In this document: piece after piece, positions 16,288 to 45,947 of the stretch
Numbering within the stretch: the stretch's first letter is position 1
Layout of the letters: every line of letters starts with the position of its first letter
NCBI GenBank assembly: GCA_020635715.1
Contig: JACJZG010000012.1
Coordinates: 24,680-88,679 of the forward strand
Reading direction: 5' to 3'
Source: Flavobacteriales bacterium
GTDB lineage: Bacteria; Bacteroidota; Bacteroidia; Flavobacteriales_F; PHOS-HE28
Length of the DNA: 64,000 nt
Notes under the pieces: model-generated
What the model was told of the DNA's origin: nothing
The model's input: only the letters and a program-made list of their open reading frames with translations
Database searches by the model: none
Program-made: the position numbers and the translations under genes

Positions 16288-17295
16288 TTAGAATGCACTG
16301 CTCGTGGACATGCGGCGTTGTCGCCCATTGTGGGTTCCGTAGTAGAGAATGGAGAATTCGAAAGCCCCGTTCTTTCGCGTGTAGTTCTGCAGCGATGACA
16401 TGTTGATGTCATAACTGAATCGGAATGCCGCGTTGTTGTGCTTCAGTCCGACTTGCGCGATGATCGCGTCCTTCACACGGTACGAGCAACCGACGACCGC
16501 GCTGTACGGTGTGCCCATGATGTTGACCTCGGCAAGCATCCCTGCGTTGATCATCTGATCCTTGCCCTGGAGCATGTACAACCCCATCGGGATGAGGTAC
16601 ATCCCCTCGTTGAACTCCACCCGCGCTCCTGCGTTCACGGAATAGCGGATGGGCAGATCGGTCTTGGCGGTACGCAAGATGGATTCATCCGGGGTGGTGA
16701 CGTGGAATAGCGCGAAGTTGCCGAATGGATTCACCCTCTTCCGCGCATCCGTACTCCTGTAAGCGACCCCTGCGGAGATGTCAGGCATGAAGCGTGCACC
16801 GCGCTGCAGGATCTCGCCTGAGGGTAGGTCGCTGTCGAAATACCCATTGTTATACTGATTATCCCAAAGCAACTGCTGGCTGTTCACCTTCTTGTAAAGG
16901 AGCCCGATGTGCGCGCCCACGGAAAGCGTGTGGCCTGCATTCTTGGTTGATACGTTGTATGCCCCGGACGTACCGAGTTGGAACGTGTTCACGATCCCCG
17001 CCTGGTTGAAATTCGTCATGTACAGGCCAGCTCCATAGCGGTTCTGAAGAGCGAGGTCATAGGCGAATCCCGTCGTAAGGAAACTGCTCTGCAGGCTGTT
17101 CCATTGACTGCGCACATTGCTGGTCATACGGAAATCCGCATTCTCGAACATGCCTGTGAGCGCCGGATTCAAGGTGTTCGGCGCGGTCTCGTATTGGGAC
17201 AGGTGCGCATCCTGAGCCAGGATCGTACTGCTCACGCAGCCCGTGATCAGCAGCGCGGAAAGAGCATTCAGGTTCTTCATGTTGCTCAGGTTCAC
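16288..17295 (-). CDS. PorP/SprF-family T9SS membrane protein (cognate partner of the upstream type B cargo)
   Basis: Signal peptide followed by QDAHLSQYETAPNTLNPALTGMF, the family-defining N-terminal motif. Beta-barrel-like composition and a C-terminal aromatic residue (SSAF). The first possible ATG at 17295 abuts the adhesin stop (17296-17298); an alternative ATG is at 17280. Confidence 0.8.
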   Translation of the reverse strand: MNLSNMKNLNALSALLITGCVSSTILAQDAHLSQYETAPNTLNPALTGMFENADFRMTSNVRSQWNSLQSSFLTTGFAYDLALQNRYGAGLYMTNFNQAGIVNTFQLGTSGAYNVSTKNAGHTLSVGAHIGLLYKKVNSQQLLWDNQYNNGYFDSDLPSGEILQRGARFMPDISAGVAYRSTDARKRVNPFGNFALFHVTTPDESILRTAKTDLPIRYSVNAGARVEFNEGMYLIPMGLYMLQGKDQMINAGMLAEVNIMGTPYSAVVGCSYRVKDAIIAQVGLKHNNAAFRFSYDINMSSLQNYTRKNGAFEFSILYYGTHNGRQRRMSTSSAF

Positions 17296-23200: not shown

Positions 23201-26200
23201 CCAGCGGAAGGCGTGTACAGCGCGTTGAGCGCGTTGGCGTTCGGGGTGAAGGTTCCGCCCGCTCCGGACCAGGTACCGCCGCTCGCGACGGTCACACTAC
23301 CGTTCAATTGGATGCCCGCGTTGTTCGCGCAGCGCACGCCGTCAGCACCGGCGTTCGCGGTGGGCGAAGCAGTGAAGGTGATGAGCACCTGATCCGATAC
23401 CGGCACGCAATTGCCATTGCCGATCGTCGTAAGGGTCAGGGTCAAGCTACCTGCGGCGACTTCCGCTGCGGTCGGCGTGTAGATCGCGTTCAGCGAAGCG
23501 ATGCTCGGCGAGAACGTTCCCGCACCACCACTCCATTGGCCACCACCCGCACCGCTCACGGAACCGCCGAGCTGCACGTTGGGGTTGTTGGAGCAGACCG
23601 CGATGTCATTGCCCGCATTGGCCACCGGCGATGCGATGATGGTGATGACCATCTGGTCGCTTACCGCATTGCAGAGGCCGTTGCCGGTGCTCGTCAACGT
23701 CAGCGTCACCGTGCCCAGGGCCAATTCCGCCGGGCTCGGCAGGTATGTCGCATTCAGCGTGTTCGCGTTCGGCGTAAAGCTGCCACTGCCACCGCTCCAC
23801 ACACCACCGGTCGCGATGGTCACAGAGCCGTTCAGGACGACCGTCGGATCGTTCGCGCACACGGTGCGGTCGATGCCGGCGTTCACCACGGGGCTCTGCG
23901 AGAAGAAGATCGTCATCTGATCGCTCACCGCCTGGCAGGTACCGTTGCCGGTGCTCGTCAGCGTGAGCGTCACGGAACCGTTGGCGAGTTCCGAGGTGCT
24001 CGGCGTGTAGGTCGCGTTCAGCGCATTGATGCTCGGTGAGAAGGTGCCCGTGCCGCCGCTCCAGATGCCGCCGCCCGCGTTGCTCACGGTACCGGCCATC
24101 TGCACTGTGGCATTGTTGGAACACACGGTCTGGTCCACTCCCGCGTTCACCACCGGCGAAGGCGCGATGGTGATCGTCATCTGGTCGCTCACCGCGTTGC
24201 ACAGACCGTTGCCGGTGCTGGTCAGCGTGAGCGTCACCGTACCTGCGGCCACTTCACCCAGCGTTGGCGTGTAGGTGGCATTCAGGTTCGTGTTGCTCGG
24301 GTTGAAGGTGCCGGAACCGCCGCTCCACACGCCGCCCGTGGCGTTGTTCACCACACCGGCCAATTGCGCGGTCGATTGGTTCGCGCAGGTGGTGATGTTC
24401 GCACCGGCGTTCGCGATCGGCGTAGGTGTGATGGTGATGGTGATCTGGTCGCTCTCCGGATTGCTGTTGCCGTTGCCCACCGTGGTGAGCGTCAGCGTCA
24501 CCGTGCCGGCCGCGATCTCAGAAGCGCTCGGTGTGTAGATGGCGTTCAGCGCACCGCTGTTCGGGTTGTACGTGCCCGTGCCACCGCTCCAGATACCCCC
24601 GGTGGCGATGGTCACCGCACCGTTCAGTTGTACGGTTACATTGTTCGCGCACACCGTCTGATCCGGACCTGCGTTCGCCGTCGGCGCAGCACCGAAGGTG
24701 ATCGTCATCTGGTCCGTTGAAGGCGAACACGCGCCATTTCCCGTGGTGATGAGCGTCAGCGTCACGCTGCCCGACGCGATCTCCGCAGGGGTCGGTGTGT
24801 ACACCGCGTTCATCGTGCTGTTGTTCGGGCTGTAGGTGCCCGCGCCGCCGGTCCATTGCGCACCGGTGCTGATGCTGAAGCTGCCCGCGAGCGTGGTGTT
24901 CGCGTTGTTGCTGCTCACCGTCTGATCCGGACCCGCGTTCGCGACCGGCGCCTGGGTGTAGGTGATGGTCACCGCATCGCTCACGGCGGCGCAGTTGCCG
25001 TTGCCGGTCGTCGTCGCGATCAGCGTTACGGAGCCGTTCACCACTTCGATGGGCGAGGGCGAATACGTGATGTTCTGCGCGGTGCTGCCCGGACTGTACG
25101 CACCGGTCCCCCCGGACCACTGCACACCGGTGGCCACCGTGATCACGGCGCCCAGCGTGGCGGTCGCGTTATTGCCGCAGACCGACTGGTCCACACCGGC
25201 GTTCACCGTCGGTGCGGGGGTGATCGTGTAGGTCACGTTGCTCGAGACCGCATTGCACTGGCCGTTGCCAGCAGAGGTCAGCGTGAGCGTCACCGTACCG
25301 GCCGCGATCTCCGCCGCGGTCGGCGTGTAGGTCGCGTTCAGGGTGATGTTGTTCGGGCTGAAGGAACCCGCACCACCGCTCCACACGCCACCGGCAGCAC
25401 CGGTCACGGCACCGTTCAGAGCGATCGCCGGAGCGTTCGCGCACACGCTTCCATTGGCGCCAGCGTTCACGATCGGCGCAGGCGTATAGGTGATGATCTT
25501 GGTGTCCGTGGCGGGCGTGCAGTTGCCGTTGCCCGTCGTGGTCAGTGTCAGCGTCACCTGGCCAGCAGCGAGGTCACCCGCGCCGGGGTTGTAGGTGGCG
25601 TTCAGCGTGTTCGCGTTCGGCGTGAAGGTGCCCGTACCGCCGCTCCACACACCGCCGGTTGCTACGATCACGCTTCCGCCAAGCGCTACTGCAGCATTGT
25701 TCGCGCAGCGCGTTACATCCGGACCGGCGTTCGCCGAAGGCGGATCGGTGAAGGTGAGCAGCACCTGATCGGTGGCGGCGTTGCACAGGCCGTTGCCCGT
25801 GGTGGTCAGTGTCAAGGTCACGCTGCCCGCTGCGATCTCCGCCGCGGTCGGCGTGTAGATCGCGCTCATGTTCGTCGTGCTCGGATCGAAGGTCCCCGCG
25901 CCGCCGCTCCAGATACCGCCCGTGGCGATGGAGAAGGCGCCGGACAATCCAGTGGCTGCGTTGTTCGCGCAGAGGACGCGGTCCGCGCCCGCATTGGCCG
26001 TCGGGGCAGGCGTGATGCTGTAAGTCACCTGGTCGCTCACGGCGTTGCAATTGCCGTTGCCCGTGGTGGTCAACGTCAGCGTTACAGTGCCAGCGGTACG
26101 TTCCGCCGCGCTCGGCGTGTACACTGCGTTCAGCGTCGTGTTGTTCGGGTTGAAGGTTCCCGTGCCGCCGCTCCAGGCAGCACCGGAAGCACCGGTCATC

Positions 26201-29070
26201 ACACCGGCCAGCGTGATGTTCGCGTTGTTCGCGCACACCGTGCCGTTCGCACCGGCATCCACCGTGGGCGCATCCGTGAAGGTGATCACCTTGGTGTCGC
26301 TCACGGCATTGCAGTTGCCGTTGCCCGTGGTGGTCAGCGTCAGCGTGAGGCTGCCGAGGGCGAGTTCCGATGGCGTAGGCGTGTAGGTCGCGTTCAGCGT
26401 GGTGTTGTTCGGCGTGAAGGAGCCCGCGCCGCCGCTCCAGATGCCGCCCGTGGCCACACCAACGGTACCGCTCAGCGCGACCGCCGCGTTGTTGCGGCAC
26501 ATCGATACATCGGCGCCCGCATCCACGGAAGGACTTGGCGTGAAAGAGAGCACCACGTTGTCGCTCACCGCCACGCAGTTGTTGTTGCCCGTGGTGGTCA
26601 GCGTCAGTGTCACCGAGCCGTTGGATATCTCCGCGGCGGTAGGCGTGTACGTAGCGTTCATCAAGGTGGCGCTCGGGCTGAAGGTTCCCGATCCACCGCT
26701 CCAAACGCCACCGGTCGCCACCGTGAACGAGCCGTTCATCGTGGCCACCGCGTTGTTGGCGCAGAGTGACTGGTCAGCACCCGCGTTGACCGTCGGCGCA
26801 GGCGTGATGCTGAAGGTCACGTTGTCGCTTACCGCGTTGCAATTTCCGTTGCCGGCGGAGGTCAGCGTGAGCGTCACGGTACCGGCGTTGCGCTCGGCAA
26901 CGGTCGGCTGATAGGTCGCGTTCAGCGTGGTATTGTTCGGCGAGAAAGTGCCCGCACCGCCGCTCCAGATCGCGCCGGTCGCGCCGCTCACTGATCCGTT
27001 CAAGGTGATGAGCGAGTTGTTCGCGCACACGGTGCCGTTCGCACCGGCGTCCACAACCGGAGCAGGTGTGAAGGTGATCGTGCGTGTGCTGGTCACGGCG
27101 TTGCAATTGCCATTGCCGGTCGTCGTCAGCGTGAGCGTCAACGTACCGGCTGCGAGTTCAGCTGGCGTCGGCGTGTACACCGCGTTCAAGGTGGTGTTGT
27201 TCGGCGTGAAGGATCCCAGGCCGCCGCTCCACACACCTCCTGTGGCACCGGATACGGAACCGGTCATCGTCACCTGCGGGTTATTCACGCAGATGGAGAT
27301 CGGCGCTCCAGCGTTCGCCACAGGCGCCGGCGTGAAAGCGATCGTGATGTTGTCGCTCACTGCCACGCAATTGTTGTTGCCCGTGGTGGTCAGCGTGAGC
27401 GTCACGGAGCCCGTCGCGATCTCGGCCGCGGTCGGCGTGTAGGTCGCGTTCAGGTTCGTGGTGCTCGGCGCGAAGGTGCCCGCACCGCCGCTCCAGATGC
27501 CGCCGGTGGCCACCGTGACGGAACCCGCCAGGGTCGCCACCGCATTGTTCGCGCAGAGGCTTTGATCCGGACCAGCGTTCACGGTCGGTGCCGGAGTGAT
27601 GCTGTAGGTCACTTGATCGCTCACCGCGTTGCAGTTGCCGTTGCCCACCGTGGTGAGCGTGAGTGTCACGGTACCGGCCGCGCGCTCCGCAGCGCTCGGT
27701 GTGTACACCGCGTTCAGCGTGGCGTTGTTCGGACTGTATGTGCCCGTACCGCCGCTCCAGACCGCGCCCGTTGCGCCGCTCTGCGAACCAGCCAGCGCGA
27801 TGGACGCGTTGTTCGCGCACACCGTGCCGTTAGGGCCAGCATCCACCGTGGGCGCAGGCGTGAAGGTGATCACGCGGCTGCTCTGCACCGGATTGCAGGT
27901 ACCGTTGCCGGTGCTCGTCAACGTGAGGGTCAAGGTGCCTCCGGCGATCTCAGCGGCCGTGGGTGTGTAGGTCGCGTTGAGCGTGCTGTTGTTCGGGTTA
28001 TAGGTGCCCGTTCCGCCGCTCCACACGCCGCCCGTCGCACCGCTCACGCTGCCGTTCAGGCTCACTTGCGCATTGTTCGCGCAGAGCGAGATCGGCGCGC
28101 CGGCGTTCACCACCGGTGCAGCTGTGAAGTTGATCGTCATCTGATCGGCGACGGCGGTGCAGTTGCCGTTGCCGGTCGTGGTCAGCGTCAGCGTGACAGA
28201 ACCGTTCGCGATCTCCGCAGCGCTTGCCGTGTAGATCGCGCCCATGTTCGTGGTGCTCGGATCAAAGGTTCCCGCACCGCCACTCCAAACCCCGCCCGTC
28301 GCGACCGTGAACGAACCGTTCAGTGCAACCGCAGGATTGTTCGCGCAACGGGTCGCATCGGCACCCGCATTCACCGTCGGTGAAGGCGTGATGGTGAAGG
28401 TCACCGCATCGCTCACGGCGTTGCAATTGCCGTTGCCCACGGTCGTCAGCGTCAGTGTCACGGTACCGGCCGCGCGCTCGGCAGCGGTCGGCGTGTACAC
28501 CGCGTTCATCGTGGCGTTGTTCGGGTTGTAGGTGCCCGCGCCACCGCTCCAGATCGCGCCCGTGGCACCGGTGAAGGCTCCGTTCAGGCTGATGTTCGCA
28601 TTGTTCTCGCATACACTCGCATCAGCTCCCGCGTTCGCGGTAGGCGCGGGCGTGAACGTGATCACGCGGCTGCTGGAGACCGGGTTGCAATTGCCGTTGC
28701 CCGTGCTGGTCAGCACCAGCGTAACGGTGCCCGCGGCCAGGTCGGCAGCGCTCGGCGTGTAGGTTGCATTGAGCGTGGTGTTGTTCGGGGAAAAGGTGCC
28801 GGAACTGGCGGTCCAGGCGCCGCCGGTAGCACCATCACACTGCTCAAGCTCACCTGCGCATTGTTGGCACAGAGCGATATCGGCGCGCTTGCGTTCACTG
28901 AAGGCGCATCGGGCGACGCGATCACCATCTGGTCCGTCGTTGCGTTGCAGGTCTTGCTGCTGGTCGTGGTCAACGCCACGATGCTGCGGCGATTCCGCTG
29001 CGCTCGGCGTGTACACCGCGCCCATGTTGGTGGTGCTCTGGACCAAAGGTGCCTGCACCCCTGCCCACAC
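17296..29070 (-). CDS. Giant T9SS-secreted repeat adhesin (SprB-class), the in-frame 3' 11.5 kb. The true reading frame is continuous only up to about 28,834.
   Basis: Single 3,924-codon ORF containing 40 tandem 88-aa modules (consensus ...P-x-P-x-[VA]-[ND]-A-G-x-D-x-x-x-C-x-N-N...A-T-G-G-x-W-S-G-G-x-G-T-F-x-P...L-N-A-x-Y-T-P...T-L-T-L-T-T-T-G-N-G-x-C...), then 2 PKD-like domains and a type B sorting domain. The listed Met at 29070 is in a wrong-frame extension and has no signal peptide. Confidence 0.85.
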   Translation of the reverse strand: MWAGVQAPLVQSTTNMGAVYTPSAAESPQHRGVDHDQQQDLQRNDGPDGDRVARCAFSERKRADIALCQQCAGELEQCDGATGGAWTASSGTFSPNNTTLNATYTPSAADLAAGTVTLVLTSTGNGNCNPVSSSRVITFTPAPTANAGADASVCENNANISLNGAFTGATGAIWSGGAGTYNPNNATMNAVYTPTAAERAAGTVTLTLTTVGNGNCNAVSDAVTFTITPSPTVNAGADATRCANNPAVALNGSFTVATGGVWSGGAGTFDPSTTNMGAIYTASAAEIANGSVTLTLTTTGNGNCTAVADQMTINFTAAPVVNAGAPISLCANNAQVSLNGSVSGATGGVWSGGTGTYNPNNSTLNATYTPTAAEIAGGTLTLTLTSTGNGTCNPVQSSRVITFTPAPTVDAGPNGTVCANNASIALAGSQSGATGAVWSGGTGTYSPNNATLNAVYTPSAAERAAGTVTLTLTTVGNGNCNAVSDQVTYSITPAPTVNAGPDQSLCANNAVATLAGSVTVATGGIWSGGAGTFAPSTTNLNATYTPTAAEIATGSVTLTLTTTGNNNCVAVSDNITIAFTPAPVANAGAPISICVNNPQVTMTGSVSGATGGVWSGGLGSFTPNNTTLNAVYTPTPAELAAGTLTLTLTTTGNGNCNAVTSTRTITFTPAPVVDAGANGTVCANNSLITLNGSVSGATGAIWSGGAGTFSPNNTTLNATYQPTVAERNAGTVTLTLTSAGNGNCNAVSDNVTFSITPAPTVNAGADQSLCANNAVATMNGSFTVATGGVWSGGSGTFSPSATLMNATYTPTAAEISNGSVTLTLTTTGNNNCVAVSDNVVLSFTPSPSVDAGADVSMCRNNAAVALSGTVGVATGGIWSGGAGSFTPNNTTLNATYTPTPSELALGSLTLTLTTTGNGNCNAVSDTKVITFTDAPTVDAGANGTVCANNANITLAGVMTGASGAAWSGGTGTFNPNNTTLNAVYTPSAAERTAGTVTLTLTTTGNGNCNAVSDQVTYSITPAPTANAGADRVLCANNAATGLSGAFSIATGGIWSGGAGTFDPSTTNMSAIYTPTAAEIAAGSVTLTLTTTGNGLCNAATDQVLLTFTDPPSANAGPDVTRCANNAAVALGGSVIVATGGVWSGGTGTFTPNANTLNATYNPGAGDLAAGQVTLTLTTTGNGNCTPATDTKIITYTPAPIVNAGANGSVCANAPAIALNGAVTGAAGGVWSGGAGSFSPNNITLNATYTPTAAEIAAGTVTLTLTSAGNGQCNAVSSNVTYTITPAPTVNAGVDQSVCGNNATATLGAVITVATGVQWSGGTGAYSPGSTAQNITYSPSPIEVVNGSVTLIATTTGNGNCAAVSDAVTITYTQAPVANAGPDQTVSSNNANTTLAGSFSISTGAQWTGGAGTYSPNNSTMNAVYTPTPAEIASGSVTLTLITTGNGACSPSTDQMTITFGAAPTANAGPDQTVCANNVTVQLNGAVTIATGGIWSGGTGTYNPNSGALNAIYTPSASEIAAGTVTLTLTTVGNGNSNPESDQITITITPTPIANAGANITTCANQSTAQLAGVVNNATGGVWSGGSGTFNPSNTNLNATYTPTLGEVAAGTVTLTLTSTGNGLCNAVSDQMTITIAPSPVVNAGVDQTVCSNNATVQMAGTVSNAGGGIWSGGTGTFSPSINALNATYTPSTSELANGSVTLTLTSTGNGTCQAVSDQMTIFFSQSPVVNAGIDRTVCANDPTVVLNGSVTIATGGVWSGGSGSFTPNANTLNATYLPSPAELALGTVTLTLTSTGNGLCNAVSDQMVITIIASPVANAGNDIAVCSNNPNVQLGGSVSGAGGGQWSGGAGTFSPSIASLNAIYTPTAAEVAAGSLTLTLTTIGNGNCVPVSDQVLITFTASPTANAGADGVRCANNAGIQLNGSVTVASGGTWSGAGGTFTPNANALNALYTPSAGELAAGSVTLTLTTTGNNGCTAVSDDVTYTFTPAPTANAGADLFTCANNASVQLNGAITVATGALWSGGNGTYSPNNGTLNATYTPSASEIAAGTVTLSLTTVGNGTCNPVSDQVVITIIPSPIVNAGTPLTSCANNPAVQLAGSVQNATGGIWSGAGTFSPSNTNLSATYTPSNAEIAAGTATITLTSTGNGLCNAVASQVVLTITAAPVVEAGSPQTLCANNAVAQLNGSVANATGGVWSGVSGAFSPNSNTLNAAYTPSAAEIASGQVWLFLTSTGNGGCVSTQDSVQLVFTPAPTVNAGPDAHVCANAAQASLSGAVTVATGGIWTGGNGSYTPGNAALNATYFPTAAEIASGQFTLVLSSTGNGNCAIVRDSLIVLVDPVPVVNAGPDQQICANNSNVQLNGFVGNAPGGAWSGGAGTFFPSNTMLATQYAPTAAEIAAGSVTLTLSSTGTAYCNAVTDQMTIVFTGAPIVDAGSDLQICANNSAVQLTGNVTNASGGTWTGGSGSFAPNANVLSPVYTPSAGELAAGTLSLYLTSTGNGNCLAVRDTVVVTFTPAPTVNAGVDQNMCMNNAVVTLNGAVTVATGAQWSGGLGTFTPNAQTLNAQYVPSSFELGSGSVQLTLTTTGNGNCTAVSDQMMITVTPSPVVDAGADVTTCSNQLQVPLNGTVQGGATTGQWTTSGTGLFSPSPTALNATYIASSLDSLNGSVELTLSSSNNGLCTAVSDAMTITILPNAIANAGVDQTICASTSSIQLSGTITGNATQGQWTSTGAGSFLPSAADANAVYQLAPGDAAQGTLTFTWSVNSCDNAMDQMVLTITPESVVNAGADQVTCFGDLDVVINGTVSGASSSGTWSTLGSGGFANANTALSNVYQASANDQLAGGAYLVLTATNTGVCAPGADTLFIAIQPEGTVNAGLDVTACANNAVTQLNGQLSGDASQVQWSTSGTGSFYPNPNVLTPTYIPSAIDTAIGNLTLTISAPGSCNNATDAMQLTLTPAPYVNAGPDQTYCNAVTQFNLNGAISGITNVGQWTTTGTGTIANAGALNTTYTASAADIANGSITFTLSSLDNANCNPVTDQMTIYLTDGIITNAGPDQNVCVLSDHANLLGSIQNGSPSGTWTSTGTGTFEPSADALNAQYFFSAADVTNGSVVLTLTATNTGTCPSTQDAMVITFGNSSYAYAGADQVLCANAPIAQLAGNYSGGSSGITWSTSGTGSFSNITDPGATYTMSGADITAGSVQLTLTTITSGACAVSSDVVLLSVNPLPNINAGADIIACTAAPVQLTANVANAGGGTWTTSGTGTFFDPNALATLYLPSAADSLAGSVTLTVTTIGMAPCSAVSDELVISFGGGLAAVAGADVVACSTDPNIALNGAVAGTTTGTWSTSGTGSFMPNANALNATYIPGAADYAIGNINLVLSTTNNQGCPAGRDTLVVSYHVPPTVNAGADVLLCNGLEDVQLNGTAQNQGSVQWTTMGSGSFQPSADVLNAVYTATANDSIAGGVYLVLTAFGTGTCGNAADSVFIDIGPTRIANAGADQTVCADMDPIALGGSITGVSGGVWSTSGTGTFLPDATTLGAAYVPSSTDMAFNELRFILTTTGNMGCPADTDTMRVSLQAVPTVNAGSDLSTCDASAPVDLSGSFTGASGIQWSTNGAGVFLPSNTAANASYQPGATDEQLGTVRMVLTTTGNGVCAAVSDTLMLSFVNPLQPAFGVTNACAGSITSFMDASTTSGSAIIGWSWDLGNGVPVNGPEASTSFTEPGEYTVTLTVFAQNGCSASITRTVEVLDAPVAGFTISGELLTETEIAFTDTSVGATNWHYDFGDGGGSLLAEPVHAYETPGQYIIVQTVTNANGCTDRDSLLIKVEVKDILPPKLPNAFSPNGDGVNDVFYVRGGPFETMHLRVFNGWGELIFETEDPTFGWDGTHDGQPEINGVYVYSVVATTKDGTVHDRSGKISLIR
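17299..17556 (-). other. T9SS type B C-terminal sorting domain (gliding-motility-associated CTD, TIGR04131-like)
   Basis: LPNAFSPNGDGVNDVFYVRGGPFETMHLRVFNGWGELIFETEDPTFGWDGTHDGQPEINGVYVYSVVATTKDGTVHDRSGKISLIR* matches the PNxFxPNGDGxND...WDG...G.Y.Y...R pattern. Confidence 0.8.
17557..18066 (-). other. Two PKD-like domains
   Basis: F-x-D-x-S...W-x-[WF]-[GD]-[DL]-G...H-x-[YF]...G-x-Y-x-V-x-L-x-V...G-C patterns (WSWDLGNG...GEYTVTLTVFAQNGC; WHYDFGDG...GQYIIVQTVTNANGC). Confidence 0.7.
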
Positions 29071-32000
29071 CCCGCCGGTAGCAATGTAGAAGGGAACCGT
29101 TCAGTGCAACAGCCGCGTTGTTCGCGCGGTGACCGTGCGGTCGAGTCCGCGTTGGGCCGTCGGAGCCGGCGCGATCGTGAAGGCTCACGTTGTCGCTCAC
29201 GGCGTTGCAGTTGCTGCTGCCTACGGTCGTGGAGGGGAGTGAGCGTCATCAAAGCGCAGTACGTTCGGCGGCGCTGGCGGCACACCGTGCCTGGCGTCGT
29301 GTTGTTCGGTTGTAGGTGCCCTGCGCCACCGCTCCGTGATCACCCTGGTCGATACCGTGAAGGAGCTGTTCAGTGTGATGTCTGCGCGGTTCGCGCACAC
29401 ACTTCGTCGCGTTTGCACCAGCATCCACTGCCGGTGCTGCGTGAAGGCGATCACCGGCTGTCGGAAATGGCGCGCTGCAGCTGCTACTGCCGGTCGGCTG
29501 GCGGTCAGTGGTCAGCGTACCCGCAGCCAGTTCAGCGGGGTCGGCGGTAGAAGGTTGCGTTGATGTCGTGCGTTGTTCGGCGTGAAGGATCCCGCACCAC
29601 TGCTCCAGATGCCGCCCGGCGACCGTCACGCTTCCGCCCAGGCCACGCCTGCGTTATTGCAGCAGAGTGTCAGGTCCGGACCAGCGTTGGCCGTCGGACC
29701 GGGGTGAAGTTCAGCTGTACCTCGACCGGTCACAGTGATAAGGCGGTGCCGTTGCCGGTCGTGGTCAGTGTAAGCGTCACCAGGTTGCCTTCGCGCATCC
29801 TTTCGGCCGCCGTCGGTGTGTAGGTCGCGTTGAGGTTCGTGGCGCCTGGCGCGAAAGTGCCTGCTCCACCGCTCCAGATGCCGCCTGTCGCGATCGTCAC
29901 GCTGCCACCCATAGGGGAGGCGACAGGGTTGTTGCAAAGGATTGGTCGGCGCCCGCGTTGGCTGTCGTGGACAGGTGTTATCGCGTAGGTTACGTTATCG
30001 CTCATCATGTTGCAGTTAAGCGTTGCCGGCGGAGGTCAGCGCTGCATCACCGTTCCAGCAGTTCAGCGGCGGTGGGTGTATAGGTCGCGTCTGGCGCGGT
30101 GTTGTTCGGGAAGAGCAGGTTCCCGCCCCACTGCTCCAGGATGCCGCCAGGCGCCGGTCACGGGATCCGTTCAAACCGACCGTTGCGTTGTTCGTGCAAA
30201 TCGAACTGTTCGCACCCGCGCTCACGATCGGCGCAGGCGTGAAGCGACCACCCTTGTTACCACGACTGGGTTGCAAGTACCCGTTACCGGTACTGGTCAA
30301 GGTGAGGGTGAGCGCGCCTGCGGCCATTTCCGATGCAGTGGGTGTGTAGGGTGGCGGTGAGCGCGGTGCTGCTCGGGTTGGCTGCGCCGTGCCGCTCCAG
30401 ATGCCACCGGTGGCCCCGGTCACAGAACTACTCAAGCTCACCTGCGCATTGTTGGCGCAGAGTGAACAGGCGCGCCTGCGTTCACCACAGGAGCTGGCGT
30501 GAAGCCGATCACCATCCGGATCCGGTGACCGCCGTGCAGGTACCATTTCCGGTCGTCGCTCGCGTAAGCGGTCACAGGAGCCGCTCGATATCTCACCAGC
30601 GGTCGGCGTACCGCACCCAGCGTTGGTGGTGCTCTGATCGAAAGAGCCTGCCGCTGCTCCAGATACCACCAGTGGCAACCGTGAACGAAACCGTTCAGGT
30701 GACCACCGCAAGAAATTGCGCAGGTGACCGTGCGATCGTTGCTCGTACTGGGCTGGGCGTCGGAGTGCCGCCGGCGCGACCGTGATGCGGACGTTGTCGT
30801 CACGGCGCTGTAGCTGCTGCTGCCCACCAGGTGAAGGCAGAGCGTCACGGCGCCTGCCGTGCGCCTGCTAGCCGCGCTTCGGGTGTGTACACCCCGCGCG
30901 ATGTGGTGAATATTGTTCGGGCCAGGTGCCCGTCTGCCGCTCCATGTCGCACCGGAAGCACGGCGCATCGAGCCCGCCAGCGTGATGGAAGCGTTGTTCG
31001 CGCAAACCGTCGCGTTCGCTCCCGCATCCACCGTTGGTGCAGGTGTACGGCGATCACCTTGCTGCTGGATACCGCATTGCAGTTCCTGTTGCCCGTAGAG
31101 GTCAAGGTGAGCGTCACCGTTCCCGCGGCTGCATTTCCGGGTTGTGCGGCGTGTAGGTGGCGTTCAGGGTCGCACTGGGTTGAAGGCCCGTGCCACTCGC
31201 TCCAGGCACCGCCCGTGGCGCCGGTCACACTGCCGCCTTTGCTGACTCTGCGCATTGTTCGCGCATACCGATAAACAGCGGCACCCGTGCTCACGACGGG
31301 CGCAGGCGTGAAGTTCAATTGCATCGCTGTCCCGTCACCGCGATGCAAACTGCCGTTGCCGGTGTCGCCAGCGTAAGCGTGACGAAACCGCTTGAGACTC
31401 CCCCGGGCGTAGGCGTGTATTGAGCACCCATGTTGGTCGTCGCCTGGGTCGAAGGAGTTTCGCACCGCTGCTCCAAATTCACCGGTCGCCACGGTGAACG
31501 ATCCGTTCATCGGCTACCGCGTTGTTCGCGCAGAGTGTCTGGTCCATACCCGGCGTTCGCCGTCGAGCTGCCGCGATCGTGTACGTCATTGCTGTCGCTC
31601 ACGGCGCTGTGCAGGTGCGTTGCCTACGGTGGCGTGACAGCACGGTGCCAGCGGTACGTTCCGCTGCGCTCGGCGTACACTCCGCATTCAGTGGTGTTGC
31701 CCGCTGGTGGTAAATTTCCGGGAAGTTCTGCTCCATACCGCGCCAGCTGCGCTGCTCTGCGTACCTGCCAGCGTGATGTCCGTATCACCGCGCACACCGA
31801 CCTGCTCGCACCGGCATCCACATCGGTGCCGGGTGATAATCACCTTTGTCGTTTCGTCACCGGCAGGCAGCGCCGCTATTGCCCGTACTGCTCTGGCGTC
31901 AACGTCAAGGTGCTGTAGCAGCGACCCTGCAGCTGTCGGCGGTAACGCGTTCAGCGTCGTTGTTCGACTGTAGAAAAGCCCGCACCGCCGCTCCAGGCAC

Positions 32001-32610
32001 CACCGGTCGCGCCGGTCACCGTGCCGTTGAGGCTCACCAGCGCGTTGTTCGCACAGAGCGAAACAGCCGCACCGGCATTCACCACGGGTGCTGCCGTGAA
32101 GCTGATGAGCACCTGGTCGTTCACTGCGGTGCAATTGCCATTGCCCGTGGTGGTCATCGTCAGCGTTACCGAACCACTGGAGATCTCCGCGGCCGTCGGC
32201 GTGTATTGCGCCGACATGTTGGTCGCTCGGGTCGAAGGATCCCGCACCACCGCTCCACACACCGCCCGTGGCCACGGTGAACGAACCGTTCAGATGCACC
32301 ACCGCGTTGTTCGCGCAGCGCGTCTGGTCCGCTCCCGCATTCGCGGTCGGCGCAGGCGTGAAGGACACGAGCATGCTGTCGGCCACCGCACTGCACACAC
32401 CGTTGCCGGTAGAGGTCAATTTGATCCACACCGAACCCGCCGTCAGGTCAGCGGCGCTGGGTGTGTAGGTCGCGTTGAGGTTGCTGTTGCCAGGCAGGAA
32501 GGTTCCCGTGCCGCCCGTCCATACACCACCGACCGCGTTCAGCACGCTGCCCGCGAGCTGCACCACATTGTTGTTGCGGCACACGCTCTGATCCGGTCCC
32601 GCGTTCGGTA
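18067..32610 (-). repeat. Tandem array of 264-nt (88-aa) coding modules, with a 792-nt three-module higher-order period in the 5' half
   Basis: The plus-strand anchor TTGCAnTTGCCGTTGCC (reverse complement of the GNGNC codons) sits at 25253, 26045, 26837, 27629 and 28421 (steps of exactly 792 nt) and at 28685 (+264). The 40 intact modules were counted by their [ND]AG...C starts. About 13 further degraded modules extend up to about 32.6 kb. Confidence 0.85.
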
Positions 32611-34244
32611 TCGGCTGCGGGCTGGAAGGTCACCACCATCTCATCATCCTCTGGCGTACGGCCCCTGTCGAGGTCAGCGTCAGCGTGACTGTTCCATCGC
32701 GAGATCACCGGATGCTCAAGGGATAGGTGGCGTTCAACGAAGTAGCGCTTGGCGAGAACAACGTGCCGCTTCCGCTCGTCGTCCAGATGCCCGTTGTACC
32801 CCGCTGGAAACGCTCCCGTCAACAACACGCTGTCCCCGGCACATCGCGTCTGGTCCGCACCCGCGCTCACATCGATCCTTCCGGAGAACTCGGAGAAGAA
32901 GCCGTAGCGGCAACCCGAAGTGGCACCGCCGTTGATGATCGCCAGCGAGAACACATCGCTCGTGTTGCTCACGATGAAGGCCTGGTTCACTGGCACCTCG
33001 GTGGTGTTGTACTGATGCGCGGCCACCATCGCCGCCGGTGCCCGGTACCGTCACGAATGCCGAACCCGGTATCGTTGCTGTACCGGGTCCCGTCACCACG
33101 AAATCGTTCTGCGATCCGTTCCGAACGAGGAGATTCAGGTAGAAGGCCTCGCTGGTACTTCGCGTGAAGCTGAGCTGCGTGCTACCCGCACAATTCAATG
33201 GCGGCAGGATCGCCATGCCCTGCTCGCAACCGAAGCCGGTGACATGGATCGCGTATAGCGGCTTGGAGCCGCTCACGTAGGTCGCGTTGTTCCCACCGCT
33301 CGGCAGGTAGTCCATGTCGTGGCGGTAGTACTGGCCGGCGAAGAGCGTGGCCACCGGCGTGGTGTTGCCATCGATGTAGACCTGCGTATTGTTCTGCACA
33401 GCCATCACGAAGAGCGACTCGTCGCCGGTGGTGTTGAGCGCGCCCTTCACGGCCACGTAATCGGTGCCGAGGATGTTCACCGGCACGATCTGGTCCAGCA
33501 TCAGGTCATAGCAGCCGCCCGATGGGTTGTGGTTCGAGTCATCCTTGATCGACACCGCAACAGGCTTGTTCGAAAGCACGACAGCTCCCGAAGGGTGCGT
33601 CGCCGGGTCGGTCTGGTTGGTGCCGGTCCACGCGCAGGAATAGGTCTGGCCCCGGTTCAAGGTCACCGTGAAGGGCGTAAGCGCGGGATGACCATCCACC
33701 GGCAGGGGCGAATAGATCATCACCAGCGTCCCGTTCTCGGTGGCTACGATATCGAAGGAGGCGTAGGCCTTGTTCGGCGCGGAATAACCGTGGTTGTAAA
33801 ATGGCGCGTGCTTGTGCAGCGGGATATAGAACTCGGTACCCAGGCCATTGGCACCTTTCAGCGCTGCGATGTCGGGGTTGTTCGTGAAGCTCGGCTCATA
33901 GTAGCACGATGTCTGGAGGTGCTCTGGATGTACAAGCCGGTGTTAAGGACCGCATCCGTTGACGCGTCTCCAACTTCGAATTTTCAAGGAGGTCAGGGTC
34001 GTACTGCTGCGCCGCTGTGTTGGCCAGGTTCAGCACGACGGCTGCTCTGCTGAAGCCTGGGTTACAGGTTGCGAAATGGTCACGACCGCAGGCAGGCCCG
34101 TGGAGGTGACGTTGATGTGTATCGGCTGGTCGCCAAAGTGGGACGACGACCTCGGGAGGTGCCAGCCAGAAATTGGTACTGGTTTGGGCATGGGTCAGCC
34201 CCTGAAGAGCAGCCTGCCACTGGTGGAGGAAGTGCCTGTTTCAT
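28835..34244 (-). pseudogene. Frame-disrupted 5' third of the giant adhesin gene (signal peptide, ~550-aa unique N-terminal domain, ~13 modules)
   Basis: At least 15 collinear minus-strand ORF fragments carry module sequence or N-terminal-domain sequence (for example 32734..33723 YYEPSFTNNPDIAALKGANGLGTEFYIPLHK...). The putative start MKQALP... is at 34244, followed across frame hops by STNFWLAPPEV / SSSHFGDQPIHINVTSTGLPAVVTISQP. The first disruption is at about 28,834 (one base missing in AGC AGT GTG A-T GGT GCT ACC). Confidence 0.7.
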
Positions 34245-36773
34245 TCGGAGAAGGTCCCGGTCCATGAGTGGTGGACCGATGCTCGCCCCCACGGTCATCG
34301 ACGAAAAGGGTTCATTCTTCACGGAGGTCTGTCCACCGACTCCCCCTCGGTTCCTGGCGCGCGACCTTCCACTCACTTTGGTCCGGCTCTGCCGCCTTTG
34401 ATCACCATGCCGCGCCACCTCCTCCCGCTCGTCCTTCCGGGCTTGCTGGCCCCTGCTGGCCTGACGGTTGACGCCCGGGATGCGGACGCGCGTCTGGGAA
34501 AGCGAAGCCGCGCGACTACAGCAACGCTCCTTCGACGAACGGAGCATTCGCACGGCTCGCGCCACACAGGCGCTCTCGCGCAGGTGAACTGGTCGAGCTT
34601 GGTCTGACCGTGCTGATGGTGGAACACGCACGGGGATCTGGAAGACGAGCACTTCCACACCGGGACCACCTACCCTCGGCTTCATTGGTGACAGCCTGGT
34701 GCTGGGGCTGGTCGGTCCTGAGGATGCGGGCCTTGTAGCCAGTGACGCCACGGCGCTGGCCCAGCGCGTTGCGCTCAAGGTGGCATCCACCAACATGCGA
34801 TGGTCGCGGTGGCACCTGCACCCGGTACGCCCTGGTGCCTGCCCTGGCTCACGCCCCGATCGAGAAACCGCCACCTCCAACGCCGTTTCCACCTGTCCTC
34901 GACCTGGGCGCCCTTTACCCAACCCCGCGAAGCATCGGGTCCGTTGATAGCGGATGCGGCGGACAGCCCGTTGCTACGTCTCGCCTGGCGCGGAGATGTG
35001 ACCGGGATACAGGGCCTCCCGGATCATCGGTCGGCCTTCGTCCTGCTCCCCTGCTCAGCGCTTGCTGCCCCATCGTACGAAAGCGGTCCCATCCAGTCGC
35101 TGATCGGCTTATCGAGCGCCCTGCCTGTTCTCGATCTTCCTGGGGTTCCGCTCACTGCGTTGGCGGTGCTTCCTCTTCATACCATCCGCCCTTCTGACCG
35201 GCTCCCTGGCGTTTCCTTCGGACCCGGCCACCTATGTGGCCTCCTTCGCCTTCCCTCCTCGGGATCTGGGCATCAACGCCGCGGCCGACGCATCGCTGTT
35301 GTTCACACCTTCGACGACAGTTCAGCAAGGGCCATCACTGGTGCACCACAGTTCTACGATCCTGTTCTGGGCGCGTTTCTTGACCAGTGGTACTGGATCA
35401 CGGACACCATCATCGGTCTGGTGAACGCAGTAGGACCTGACCTATACCTACGTGCAGAACCTCACCGCGGGTGCTGCGGCCTTTGTCCGGCATCGCCCTG
35501 CCTCTTCATCGTGCGGACTTTGCTCGCGGAGACGTGCGTGCATGCCATGGCGCGCTTCCGACCTGGCTCCATGCCACATGGCTCGTAGGTGCCATGGTCT
35601 TCGTCCCTTTCCGTCATCCCGTGGTAACCATAATGGACTGGCGTGCGCGACACCGCCCTCCTTCCTCTGCCATTGCTTCCGATCGTCGCCCTGCTCGTTC
35701 ATATTACTGAACATGACCGTTCGAGGTTCATACATGCTGCAGTGGGTGTTGGCGTCCTTGGTAGGCTCACCGCGCACGTCCTCAATGGGGCATACGCGGG
35801 TCGAGAGCACCGCGAACGCCTGTGCTCGCCGAACGCCTCAGCGTTAAGGAGACCTGAAGTCGGAGGTGCTCTTCCGCGGCGGTTCTACCCCTGCGAAGCG
35901 ACACCGCCCTTCACCGCATCATCACCTCGACTAAGCGTTCCCTGCGGCCGGCGAGCTTGATGCGGCCGTTCGCTCATCTTCTTCGGGGATTCTGGGAACG
36001 GTACAGCGCGCGTCTTCGCCCCTGATGCAGTAGCCCGTGCGCCGTTCCTCCAGCTAACACACCCCGAAGCCTGGAGATCGCTAGGCTCCCTCCCTTCACG
36101 GACCACGCCGCACCCCGCCGACATGCCCGATCTCTCTTCTGAACAAGCGAGGCACCGAAGGACCTTACCGCCACGCACGACTGGTGGTGATGCTAACAAC
36201 AGACACCCCGGGTCAGCTTTATACCGAACTGCATCCACGCCCGCCTCCTGTGGTCATGGGCTTTCTCCTGACCCGCTCCTTCCGGAGATGAGGCCCCTGT
36301 CGACGGCACGATCACATGCCATCGCCCGCTATGAGCATTTGGCATGTTGTGGACCCATCCCATGTGGCGACTTCCGCTCACCTGGAACCGAGCTCGGTAC
36401 GGATGGTAGGCCTTATGGTACACTACCGCGGGAATTCGGCCCGCATCACGACCGGGACGGTCATCGTTCTGGGTCTTCCGGTACCTGGCCCATTGGACAA
36501 GGCCACCACCTTCAGCTACCTCTTCGCATTCTCTCGGCTTCCTGCTCGCACTGGCTATGGGCGCGCGCAGCATGGTACGGAAAATGAGGCATCCCCGCCG
36601 ATGGGCATCGGGGCTAAGGTCCATCGCCCCTGCTGTCCCTTCGCCGCATCAGTCTGGTCTTCTTCGGCGCCGGGGCGAACATGCTGCTGGCCGGCAGTAC
36701 ACCGAACGCACTGAGTGCCGCCATCCTCGAGAGAAGGCCCGTTCGGCACATGCAACCGTAAATAACGATTCGG

Positions 36774-38026
36774 ATGGCCAGCCGACCCTCGGGCGCATCA
36801 GGATGCCCGCCATCTGGAACATCTGTTGGCAGGCTGAGCAACATGCTCTTCTCCGACATCACGGTGTACGACATCAACGGCAGGGCATCATTTCTTCACG
36901 TCCACAGGTGTTCACGAACGGACTGCCGGCCCCTACATGGACCTGCTGGCCTTCGTGCGCCTGGTACCGAGGGCGCGGGCGACTTCGCATGAGGAATCCA
37001 TCGGCACGGCACTATACCAGAACGCCTACATGCCCCTGCGCGATCGGTCCGGTCAGGTGCTTGGCCACCTCTCGCTACCTGCGTTCGCTGATCAACGCCA
37101 GCAGGAACAGGAGCGCTCGGGTGTGCTCATCGCCGTGGTCAACCTTTTCGTGCTGCTCTTCGCCCTCAGCGTTCTCGTGGCGCTCTTCATCAGCAACTGG
37201 ACCACCCGACCGCTCGACCTCTTGAAGCGATCGCTCGCCAGCGTGGAATTGAAGGGCACCGACCGCAAGCTCCGCTACCGCGGGCGCGATGAAGTGGGTC
37301 AGCTGGTGGAGGTGTACAACCGCAAGGTGGAGGAATTGCGGGTGAGCGCAGAGAAGCTCGCGCAAAGCGAGCGGGAAAGCGCGTGGAAGGAGATGGCCCG
37401 GCAGGTGGCGCACGAGATCAAGAATCCCCTCACGCCGATGAAGCTGTCCATCCAGCACTTCCAGCAGACCCAGACCTGGCTGCAGCGGGCGCGCGGGAAC
37501 GCCCGGAATTGCCGCAGCAACAACCGAGTTTTACCCAACGGCCAGAGTTCAGCTTATTTCCGCGCAGATGCCGCCAGTATTGTTCCCCACGACCATCGAC
37601 CTCGCCGAAGTGGCGCGGACATCCGTGCAGCTCTTCGGGCATGCGCCCGGTTGCTCCGTTAAGCTCACGAGCCATGGCGAACTGCTGGTGCATGCCGATC
37701 GCGAGCACCTGCTGCGCACCTTCAACAACCTCATCAAGAACGCACAACAGGCCATCCCCGATGGGCGGCAGGGTGTGGTGGAGGTGATCCTACGGGCGGA
37801 AGGAGGCGAGGCCATCGCCGAAGTGCGCGACAATGGTGCGGGCATCCCGGCCGATACCGCCGACCATGTCTTCGTTCCGAAGTTCACCACCAAGAGCAGC
37901 GGCATGGGCCTGGGCCTCGCCTACAGGAAACGTATGGTGGAGAATGCGGGCGGGCGGGTCTGGTTCAATTAATGACAGAGGGGAGCGGCACCAGCTTCTT
38001 TGTGGCTCATGCCCTTGCAGAAGTAG
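36774..38026 (+). pseudogene. Sensor histidine kinase (extracellular Cache-like domain, TM, HAMP, HisKA, HATPase_c) with several frameshifts. The 5' limit is uncertain and probably lies upstream near 36.2 kb.
   Basis: Readable pieces sit in three frames. These are LSNMLFSDITVYDINGR / IISSRPQVFTNGL / YMDLLAFVRL...LPAFADQRQQEQERSGVLIAVVNLFVLLFAL (TM), then HAMP, then the H-box WKEMARQVAHEIKNPLTPMKLSIQHFQQT. After a frame hop come EFYPTARVQLISAQMPPVLFPTTIDLAEV...NLIKNAQQAI (N box)...DNGAGIP (G1)...GMGLGLA (G2)...GGRVWFN. Two more hops then lead to EGSGTSFFV..LPLQK*. Confidence 0.7.
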
Positions 38027-38092
38027 CCGATACCTTTGGCCAGGCCGATCAACTGACCGCCTCATTTCCTGATCATCTGATCCTTTCGGTAC

Positions 38093-38875
38093 ATGTCCTA
38101 CAAGAACCTCCTCGTCACCGACGCCGACGCCGTCCGCACCATCACCATCAACCGTCCCGACCAGCTCAATGCGCTGAACCGTGACACCATCGCCGAACTG
38201 AACAAGGCGCTGACCGCTGCCGAGGCCCACAAGAGCATCCGCGTGGTGCTGCTCACCGGCAGTGGCCAGAAGGCCTTCGTGGCCGGCGCCGACATCAAGG
38301 AGTTCGCCAACTTCAGTGTGCCCGAAGGGAAGGCCCTTGCTGCTGATGGCCAGAAGCAGCTCTTCGATCATGTGGAGCACCTCGGCAAGCCGGTGATCGC
38401 GGCCGTGAACGGATTCGCGCTCGGCGGTGGATTGGAGTTGGCCATGAGCGCACACGTGCGCATCGCCAGTGAGAATGCGAAGATGGGCCTGCCCGAAGTG
38501 AGCCTTGGCGTGATACCCGGCTACGGTGGTACGCAACGTCTGCCGCGCCTGGTGGGCAAGGGCAAGGCGATGGAGATGATCCTAAGCGCCCAGATGATCG
38601 ACGCGAACGACGCGTACCAGTGGGGCCTGGTGAACCGCGTGGTACCGCAAGAACAACTGCTGAGCACCGCGCATGAGCTGGCCGTGCGCATCATGAAGAA
38701 CAGCCCCACCGCCCTCGCCGCTGCCATCCGCGCGGTGAACGCCGGTTACGAGCCCGGCGCCAACGGCCTGCAACGCGAGATCGAGGAGTTCGGAAAGTGC
38801 TTCGGAACAGCGGACTTCAAAGAAGGGACAACGGCGTTCGTGGAGAAACGGAAGGCGAATTTCACGGGGGCGTGA
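38093..38875 (+). CDS. Enoyl-CoA hydratase/isomerase (crotonase) family protein
   Basis: 260 aa, full-length and uninterrupted. Motifs VVLLTGSGQKAFVAGADIKEF and AAVNGFALGGGLELAMSAHVRIAS (oxyanion hole). Confidence 0.9.
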   Translation: MSYKNLLVTDADAVRTITINRPDQLNALNRDTIAELNKALTAAEAHKSIRVVLLTGSGQKAFVAGADIKEFANFSVPEGKALAADGQKQLFDHVEHLGKPVIAAVNGFALGGGLELAMSAHVRIASENAKMGLPEVSLGVIPGYGGTQRLPRLVGKGKAMEMILSAQMIDANDAYQWGLVNRVVPQEQLLSTAHELAVRIMKNSPTALAAAIRAVNAGYEPGANGLQREIEEFGKCFGTADFKEGTTAFVEKRKANFTGA

Positions 38876-38962
38876 TCCACAGATGACACCGATGACGCAG
38901 ATGAGATACAGTTGTGGTCACGTCGTGGGCTGCTCATCTGTGTCATCTGCGCCATCTGCGGA
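38876..38962. repeat. Imperfect inverted repeat (30-nt arms, 27-nt spacer) built from CAGATGA/GATGAC motifs; REP-like element or terminator
   Basis: Left arm TCCACAGATGACACCGATGACGCAGATGAG (38876-38905). The reverse complement of the right arm is TCCGCAGATGGCGCAGATGACACAGATGAG (38933-38962). 25 of 30 positions can pair. Confidence 0.5.
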
Positions 38963-38971
38963 TGTACTGCA

Positions 38972-40469
38972 TTGAGCACACTTCGCAAACTCGCCGGCCA
39001 GACAGCCATCTACGGGCTGAGCAGCATCGTTGCGCGCTTCCCTGAACTTCCCTGCTGGTGCCCTTGTACACCAGCAGTCTTCGTCTTCGCGTTTGGCGGA
39101 ATACGGCGTGGTCACCGCGCTCCACTTCCTGATGCCTGCTCAACGTGGTGTCACCTTCTCGGCATGGAGATCCACCTTCTTCCGCTTCGCCAACAACAAG
39201 GACCATGTTGGCGAAAACCCTGATGGTGGGCGTGCTGCGGCCAGCACCGCCACCTGGTCTTCTTCTTCCCCCGCGCTCGCCTTCATGCTCCTCGGCGGTC
39301 TGTTCTCACAACAACTGGCGGATGGTCTCCACTTCAGTGCATACGCCAGCTCGGTGCTCATGCTCGTGGGCATCATCGGTATCGATGCCATCACCGCCAT
39401 CCCCATGGCACGCTTACGCCAGGAAGGACGGCCCTGGAAATACGCCGCCATCAACCTGCTCAGCGTGGGCGTGAACATCGGCCTCAGCCTCTTCTTCCTG
39501 TTGTACTGCATGAAGCGCTACAACATGGGCGAGAGCAACGCGCTGATCGACGCGGTGTACGACCCTTCGCTCGGTGTGGGCTATGTGTTCGCCATCAACC
39601 TCGTGAGCACCGCGGTGAAACTGCTCGTGCTTCTACCCTCGTGGCCCCGGTTCGGTGGCTTGAACAAGGAGCTGCTGCGCGCGATGTTCGCCTTCGGTGC
39701 GCCGCTCATGATCGCGGGTCTCGCCGGCATGGTGAACGAGACCGCCGACCGTGTGATCCTCAAGTACCTCCTGCCCGCCGATGTGGCCGATAGCGAGCTC
39801 GGGATCTACGGCGCCTGTTACAAGCTGGCGGTGCTGATAACCCTCTTCATCCAGGCCTTCCGCATGGGCGCCGAGCCCTTCTTCTTCAGCCACGCGAAAG
39901 AGAAGAACAGCAAGGAGACCTTCGCCCGGATCATGAACATCTTCGTGGCCGTGTGCATGAGCGCCTTCCTGGTGGTGATGCTCTTCCTCGACCTGTTCAA
40001 GTGGTTCATCCCGAACCCGGCCTACCACGTTGGATTACGCGTGGTGCCGATCCTGATGCTCGCCAACGTCTTCCTGGGCATCTACTACAACCAGAGCGTG
40101 TGGTACAAGCTCACCGACCGGCCGCGTGTGGGTAGCACCATCAGCATCATCGGCGCGGGCATCACTATCGTGCTGCTCTTCGCACTGATACCCGCTATGG
40201 GCTACATGGGCGCCGCATGGGCCACCTTCATTTGCTACGCGTGCATGGCGGCCATCAGCTACGTCTGGGGGCAGAAGCATTACCCGATCCCGTACAACGT
40301 GAGCCGCATCCTGCTGTACATGGCGGGTGCGGTGCTCTTGTGGTGGGGATGTGAGCAGCTGGCGTTGGAGGGAGCGGCCAACTATGCCATGCGCTCTACA
40401 GCCTTGTTGATCTTTCTGGCCGCTGCCTGGAAGCTTGAAAAGGACGTGCTCCGACCTTTGCGGGCATGA
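38972..40469 (+). pseudogene. MOP-superfamily (Wzx-like) polysaccharide/oligosaccharide flippase. The first ~290 nt are frame-disrupted and the remaining 400 codons are intact.
   Basis: A TTG start gives (M)STLRKLAGQTAIYGLSSIVARF. The expected continuation LNFLLVPLYT..EYGVVTAL...LNVV.TFGMETTFFRFANNKD is only obtained after removing or adding single bases between 39,040 and about 39,260. Listed ORF 39030..40469 carries the intact polytopic remainder. Confidence 0.7.
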
Positions 40470-40924
40470 ACGAGGCCCATGAGCATTCCATCGAAGTCCG
40501 CATCACCAACCGCAGCCACCACCCGCTCCCCTCCTACGCCACCCCCCACAGCGCCGGCATGGATCTCCGTGCCAACCTGGACAAGCCGGTGACCCTGGAG
40601 CCCGGCCAGCGCGCCCTGATCCCCACCGGCCTCTTCCTGGAACTCCCCGAAGGCACCGAAGCCCAAGTGCGCCCCCGCAGTGGCCTGGCCTTCAAACATG
40701 GCATCACGGTGCTCAACAGCCCGGGCACCATCGACGCGGACTACCGCGGTGAGGTGGGCGTCCTTTTGATCAACCATGGCCACGAGGCCTTCGAGGTGAA
40801 GGATGGCGAGCGCGTGGCGCAACTGGTCATTGCCCGCTACCTGCGCGTCACTTTGGCAGAAAGTGCGGACCTTCGCGCCACTGAACGAGGAGCGGGCGGC
40901 TTCGGACACACCGGCACCCGCTGA
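40466..40924 (+). CDS. dut: dUTP diphosphatase
   Basis: Motifs [36 protein letters not shown] and [14 protein letters not shown] overlap with the flippase stop. Confidence 0.95.
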
Positions 40925-40939
40925 GCGAGTTAGAACCGA

Positions 40940-45901: not shown

Positions 45902-45920
45902 TCCGGGCCGCCCGATCGGC

Positions 45921-45928
45921 TACCTTTG
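45921..45928 (+). promoter_or_regulatory. Bacteroidota -7 box (TACCTTTG)
   Basis: Perfect TAnnTTTG match 20 nt upstream of the tatA ATG. Confidence 0.35.
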
Positions 45929-45947
45929 ACCCACAATCGCTTCGGAG

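Follow-up and report, generated by a model that had tools for sequence, protein, structure and literature searches.

Dense frame disruptions across giant adhesin, sensor kinase and flippase genes of a Flavobacteriales metagenome-assembled genome are very probably an assembly artefact

Genuine pseudogene tracts, in which several neighbouring genes are broken by frameshifts, occur in reducing genomes such as those of Mycobacterium leprae and Shigella. SprB-like adhesins of Bacteroidota are giant, repetitive surface proteins of the type IX secretion system (T9SS), which carry PKD and CHU_C (type B C-terminal) domains and have PorP/SprF encoded next door. Indel errors in long-read and hybrid assemblies fragment genes, a failure mode that is described in the literature (PMC5481147; PMC12007338). 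In this study we analysed a 64,000-nucleotide (nt) stretch of contig JACJZG010000012.1 (the window; all positions are those of the window unless stated otherwise) from a lineage of uncultured Flavobacteriales known almost solely from metagenome-assembled genomes (MAGs) of activated sludge and freshwater. Within it a tract of frame disruptions opens in the middle of a giant T9SS adhesin gene at 28,834, runs through a sensor histidine kinase gene and closes inside a polysaccharide flippase gene at about 39,270. We show that the disruptions exist, that the broken pieces are collinear parts of three single genes, that these genes have intact same-species versions, and that the damage is positional and dominated by indels. 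The tract is very probably an assembly artefact, namely uncorrected long-read consensus in a hybrid metagenome assembly, and not a biological feature.

As reference served a genome of the same species, GCA_041391865.1 (contig JAWKNH010000010.1; hereafter the sister), which was found via exact protein matches. Scans of genome and metagenome contig collections with the enoyl-CoA hydratase encoded amid the tract gave relatives at no more than 92% amino acid (aa) identity. Over 6,292-27,280 the sister is 97.98% identical to the window with just 8 gap nt over 21 kb; inside the adhesin they cause no net frame change. Over 28,103-40,387 the identity is 85.1% with 429 gap openings, and a second sister alignment counts 161 insertion and 161 deletion events inside the tract. 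A first-pass annotation, made by a model, had suggested comparing the locus in sister genomes. The sister encodes an intact adhesin of 5,647 aa (PKD and CHU_C Pfam domains), an intact kinase of 1,210 aa (HisKA/HATPase_c) and an intact flippase of 495 aa, and more than ten related MAGs likewise hold intact genes at all three loci. Since all three genes are intact in a genome of the same species, their shattering in the window is almost certainly sequencing noise. The features concerned are the following.

16288..17280, minus strand: PorP/SprF membrane protein of the T9SS (PF11751), directly downstream of the adhesin; clean, and exactly identical to MCB9164661.1 and MEZ4789736.1.
17296..34244, minus strand: giant T9SS adhesin with a type B C-terminal domain, true extent about 5,650 codons (from the open reading frame (ORF) 17296-29070 and the sister alignment).
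28834..34228, minus strand: the 5' third of the adhesin gene, broken by 77 frame-shifting indels, as judged by frameshift-aware alignments with the sister and with four orthologues.
34407..38026, plus strand: sensor histidine kinase (HisKA and HATPase_c; orthologues of 1,210-1,236 aa) with 56 frame-shifting indels from 34,497 to 38,008.
38093..38875, plus strand: enoyl-CoA hydratase, an intact ORF within the tract; 260 aa in the sister, from which it differs by 3 nt, and exactly identical to MCB9164669.1.
38972..40469, plus strand: polysaccharide flippase of the Polysacc_synt family (495 aa and PF01943 in the sister) with 6 frame-shifting indels at 39,041-39,152.

Frame disruptions were counted with a custom protein-to-DNA aligner that tolerates frameshifts and was calibrated on intact orthologue pairs. 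In these orthologue-versus-orthologue controls the background amounts to 0-4 frameshifts per 1,200-2,000 aa, mostly at the ends. With the sister proteins as reference, about 139 frame-shifting indels lie in the 10.3 kb from 28,834 to 39,152 (adhesin 77, kinase 56, flippase 6). This corresponds to about 13 frameshifts per kb overall and to about 21 per kb when the disrupted ("dirty") parts alone are counted, a signal far beyond chance as compared to the controls. The first-pass annotation had claimed dense disruptions hitting four neighbouring loci. The density is real, but its count was too low, the true number being several-fold higher; neighbouring genes are hit, but they are three, since the apparently gene-free 34.3-36.8 kb belongs to the kinase.

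Six intact kinase orthologues require 28-47 frameshifts, the five closest of them 40-47. The N-termini of four intact adhesin orthologues require 63-73, all within 28,831-34,251 and none below 28,800. The adhesin of one relative (L002) aligns with 71 frame corrections at 73% identity, and 68 of these 71 events are backed by at least two other references; at the DNA level, L002 (65-80% identity) is too distant for a precise placement of indels. The N-terminal 2,046 aa of the sister adhesin cover 34,244 down to 28,102, at 84% identity and with 77 frame corrections. The many adhesin fragments are therefore collinear pieces of one protein, as the first-pass annotation had held and as the frameshift-aware alignments to both the sister and L002 bear out.

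The borders of the damage are sharp and disregard gene boundaries. The first disruption had been read as a single missing base in the minus-strand module sequence; the quoted string is present, and four orthologue alignments and the sister protein agree on a deficit of 1 nt exactly at 28,834. Leftwards of this position, as had also been proposed, the adhesin is a single clean frame without any event (17,296-28,833). The TTGCA anchors of the adhesin modules lie where they had been placed, and their spacing drifts from 264 to 260, 260 and 805 nt. Altogether, all 77 frameshifts of the adhesin fall within its first 5.4 kb. The next 11.5 kb of the same frame has none, although this rate would predict about 160 there. 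At the other end, the flippase is struck only within its first 300 nt or so, and the remaining 1.2 kb (approximately) to the stop at 40,469 is clean. Small indels continue past its six frame-shifting ones up to about 39,270, and beyond this the gene is clean. At the 5' end of the flippase, where the sister reads CGCTTCC-TGAACTT-CCTGCTGGTGCCC, two additional C are present in the window, which matches base for base the correction that had been offered as an example. In the kinase, the frame hops that had been noted are recovered at 36,889, 36,927, 37,472, 37,561, 37,971 and 38,008.

Between these borders the damage is patchy. Event-free islands are found in the adhesin (33,027-33,910, 32,224-32,624 and 31,976-32,224) and in the kinase (36,987-37,472 and 37,561-37,971), and a further event-free stretch extends from 38,008 to 39,041. 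The hydratase amid the tract is untouched by frameshifts. Clean stretches had been reported before, and those at 33,027-33,910, 32,224-32,624, 36,987-37,472 and 37,561-37,971 hold up. Event-free islands of 400-1,030 nt are far too long for a uniform rate: at 13 events per kb, 883 nt would stay clean with a probability of about 1e-5. The damage therefore follows position, not genes. A profile in 200-nt bins over the 3' half of the kinase and the hydratase gives the same picture at the nucleotide level: bins free of indels match the sister at 99.5-100%, while the bins next to them, with 5-19 indels each, reach 75-87%. Moreover, two runs yielded short-read Logan contigs that match the sister at 100% and 99.8% identity and depart from the window exactly at its indel sites (37,470-38,009).

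Dirty patches are not confined to the window. The sister has its own, with at least 15 frameshifts in the dUTPase gene and an NTP-transferase gene (sister stretch 17,680-19,066; window 40,466-41,947). This segment is clean in the window and in a third assembly, GCA_020635735.1, which over 40,274-50,924 is 99.55% identical to the window without gaps. Dirty patches thus lie at different places in assemblies of one species, which makes them a property of the assemblies, and this suggests that they recur in MAGs of this species. The contig of the third assembly (JACJZE010000011.1, 66 kb) begins at 40,274, inside the flippase and about 1 kb past the right edge of the tract, so the neighbourhood is evidently hard to assemble.

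The noise itself is dominated by small, balanced indels. In total 251 nt are inserted and 252 nt deleted, so that the net length is kept within 1 nt and each damaged gene retains its length; 93% of the events are of 1-3 nt. After frame correction, only 3 in-frame stops are found in about 2,350 dirty codons. In simulations 3 stops fit about 2% random substitution, and 6 would be expected at 4% and 12 at 7.7%. Random substitutions in the tract do not outnumber indels. A uniform substitution noise of about 7.7%, as derived from the codon-position rates, was rejected, because true non-synonymous divergence and misalignment close to indels push this figure up, and the stops imply about 2%. Insertions of 1 nt lie in homopolymer runs of at least 3 in 31% of cases (background 10%), and in runs of at least 4 in only 6%.

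Part of the mismatch to the sister is genuine. In dirty bins, the mismatch at codon positions 1, 2 and 3 is 0.11, 0.11 and 0.30 for the kinase and 0.13, 0.08 and 0.25 for the adhesin, and after frame correction the protein follows, in each bin, the level of conservation among intact relatives. The footprint of selection is therefore preserved in the dirty bins. The third-position bias indicates that the dirty patches also represent an allele genuinely different from that of the sister, with a synonymous-site divergence of about 20%. The first-pass annotation had pointed out that substitutions accompany the indels; they are present, but their third-position bias marks them mostly as real strain divergence and not as decay. 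Comparable divergence from the sister, free of errors, is found at 33,027-33,910, 28,400-28,833 and 39,600-40,400. The clean flank is a mosaic as well, with differences of 0-9%: 0% at 20-24 kb, 4-6% at 24-28 kb and 9% at 6-8 kb. Just ahead of the first indel the identity to the sister drops to 87-92%. The mosaic at 6,292-28,833 suggests frequent recombination, including inside the giant adhesin, and the tract sits in a truly strain-variable segment.

We propose that this variability lies at the origin of the tract. The strain-variable region (the N-terminal half of the adhesin, the sensor kinase and the 5' end of the flippase) would have fragmented the accurate short-read graph. The accurate short pieces of 0.25-1 kb would be the clean islands, and long-read consensus from very few error-prone reads would have joined them and formed the dirty patches, which short reads could not polish afterwards. 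Concerning the provenance, the proteins of the window are exactly those numbered MCB9164658 to MCB9164675, from a 124,565-nt MAG contig at NCBI. These accessions are numbered near GCA_020635735.1 (whole-genome shotgun prefix JACJZE), and this prefix lies among the HK-STAS MAGs, from which we infer that HK-STAS (activated sludge, Nanopore and Illumina) is the source project. The HK-STAS MAGs were obtained from PromethION reads of 86.7% mean accuracy together with Illumina reads; reads were recruited loosely, at 70% and 80% similarity, and each bin was assembled with Unicycler, twice, "to bridge the gaps" (PMC8518188 and supplement). Unicycler normally draws the bridge sequence from the short-read graph (PMC5481147). 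Across dead ends it would presumably have used raw long-read consensus as the bridge. Under such a bridging model, accurate segments of the size of short-read contigs are to alternate with near-raw ones in a multi-strain region, as is seen here.

The window shares with known Unicycler long-read bridges and hybrid indel errors the percent-level small indels that make artificial pseudogenes, the sharp borders between accurate and noisy segments and the strain-variable, hard-to-assemble region. It differs in its very high error density, near few-read or raw quality, which is unusual for a deposited "polished" MAG. Several further points weigh against an artefact of this kind. Deletions are not enriched in homopolymers (12% as compared to 9%), unlike the textbook Nanopore signature, even though a few-read consensus may differ from it; the homopolymer context is mixed, insertions being enriched and deletions not, and no sequencing platform is therefore claimed on the sequence by itself. 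The sister is an imperfect truth set: within the dirty patches about 20% of third positions genuinely differ from it, and true in-frame differences between strains may account for some of the small indels. The island at 33,027-33,910 is divergent yet error-free, so accurate reads of this allele existed at least there. Finally, the case is built on assembled sequences and not on read depth or per-site read support, and the attribution to HK-STAS on accession proximity.

A variant of the artefact would be a collapsed-strain consensus, in which long reads of at least two divergent strains were piled together into a sequence corresponding to no real haplotype, on which polishing with short reads would have failed. 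The difference to the sister, 10-25% in the tract as compared to 0-2% over most of the flank, is in line with this, as are the loose recruitment thresholds of the likely pipeline (70% and 80% similarity) and the beginning of the contig of the third assembly about 1 kb past the right edge. On the other hand, the third-position bias in the dirty bins suggests one coherent underlying allele and not a scramble, and collapse and low-depth bridging are not separated by the assembled sequence. We consider collapse rather unlikely as the origin of the tract, while giving it some weight.

Genuine recent pseudogenisation, i.e. a strain that truly lost adhesin, kinase and flippase through small indels, fares much worse. 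Genes for surface and sensing functions are often lost, and the region is truly strain-divergent, with third-position-biased mismatches and a mosaic that extends outside the tract. However, natural mutation produces indels and substitutions at a ratio of roughly 1:10. At this ratio 139 frameshifts would bring about 20% neutral substitution, about 30 stops and a lost third-position bias, none of which is seen. The disruptions halt abruptly within genes, so that the adhesin stays clean for 11.5 kb and the flippase for 1.2 kb, and the dirty patches alternate with islands that are 100% identical to the intact sister. Neither a deletion bias nor larger deletions are found, the net length being conserved to 1 nt. 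The marks of a pseudogene, namely mutations scattered over the whole gene, a relaxed codon-position pattern together with nonsense codons, and deletion bias, are not found in these genes. In contrast to the tracts of M. leprae and Shigella, the genes of the window are only partly covered, their frameshifts come without accompanying nonsense codons, relaxed codon positions or deletion bias, and they are absent from a genome that is 98% identical. Loss of the three genes by ordinary decay is thus very unlikely. The first-pass annotation had weighed artefact against decay, and the artefact is strongly supported by the intact relatives, the Logan contigs, the positional, indel-dominated and balanced noise and the kept selection footprint.

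Somewhat more improbable still is a real and very recent burst of small indels, confined to this tract in a low-abundance strain, which would have inactivated adhesin, kinase and flippase before substitutions accrued; such a burst could stem, for instance, from error-prone repair, or from slippage during replication, across a 10-kb patch that had recombined. Phase-variable or programmed frameshifting of the contingency-locus type has a next to negligible probability and was dismissed on site number and sequence context: adhesin and polysaccharide genes are classic phase-variable loci and some of the insertions lengthen short C or T runs, but there are about 140 sites instead of one or few, these lack long homopolymer or simple-repeat tracts (runs of at least 4 hold 6% of the 1-nt insertions), the kinase of the cytoplasmic membrane is equally hit, and the sister is simply in frame without such tracts.

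With an uncorrected long-read consensus as the very probable origin, the tract has no biological import, since all three genes are very probably normal in the organism itself. The living bacterium is almost certain to encode one intact copy each of the adhesin (about 5,650 aa), the kinase (about 1,210 aa) and the flippase (about 495 aa). The tract is nevertheless a warning, as a deposited "high-contiguity" hybrid MAG holds a 10-kb patch of near-raw Nanopore quality and housekeeping genes are affected by a comparable patch in a second assembly of the species. Tracts of this kind raise the counts of pseudogenes and of "novel small proteins" and break the gene models of giant adhesins and kinases. 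Moreover, they tend to land on strain-variable surface loci, the regions most wanted for comparison. Between PorP and the hydratase there are seven accessions (MCB9164662-668), and a single one (MCB9164670) separates the hydratase from the dUTPase. From the seven numbers between PorP and the hydratase it follows that fragments of broken genes were deposited as separate proteins.

Beneath the damage, the adhesin is built of dozens of 88-aa (264-nt) modules with a GNGNC motif, followed by PKD and CHU_C domains at the C-terminus. The N-terminus of the sister adhesin, including the signal-peptide-like MKQALLLVLGLLFTGLTHAQ, aligns to the window at 34,244. Traits of a T9SS type B adhesin are present: PF13585 (CHU_C) on homologues and on the sister product, PF11751 on the neighbour and the signal-peptide-like N-terminus. 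The protein resembles the SprB-like adhesins in being a giant repetitive surface protein with PKD and CHU_C domains and with PorP/SprF next door. Its relevance here is confined to being the substrate of the artefact and a strain-variable locus. Searching proteins with its C-terminus gave no match above 81%. The homologue search listed no protein longer than about 1,230 aa, and giant adhesins may be under-represented there.

The apparently gene-free 34.3-36.8 kb corresponds to the N-terminal two thirds of the 1,210-aa kinase and bears about 50 frameshifts. Rfam and tRNA scans of 34.3-36.6 kb gave nothing that would account for the apparent gene desert. The long N-terminal membrane/sensor region of the kinase is kept in more than ten related MAGs, and no Pfam match beyond HisKA/HATPase_c was reported for the protein.

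The window has a G+C content of 62%. Along it, an ATP synthase operon is followed by an MFS transporter, the minus-strand genes of PorP/SprF and the giant adhesin, whose stop lies at 17,296, and then the plus-strand genes, in the order sensor histidine kinase, enoyl-CoA hydratase, Polysacc_synt-type flippase, dUTPase and further genes. In the window, flippase and dUTPase overlap by 4 nt (40,466-40,469). The sister holds about 5 kb extra between these two genes (sister stretch 12,364 to about 17,600), which encode a sigma-70 family protein and five small ORFs and constitute a strain-specific insertion or deletion adjoining the tract.

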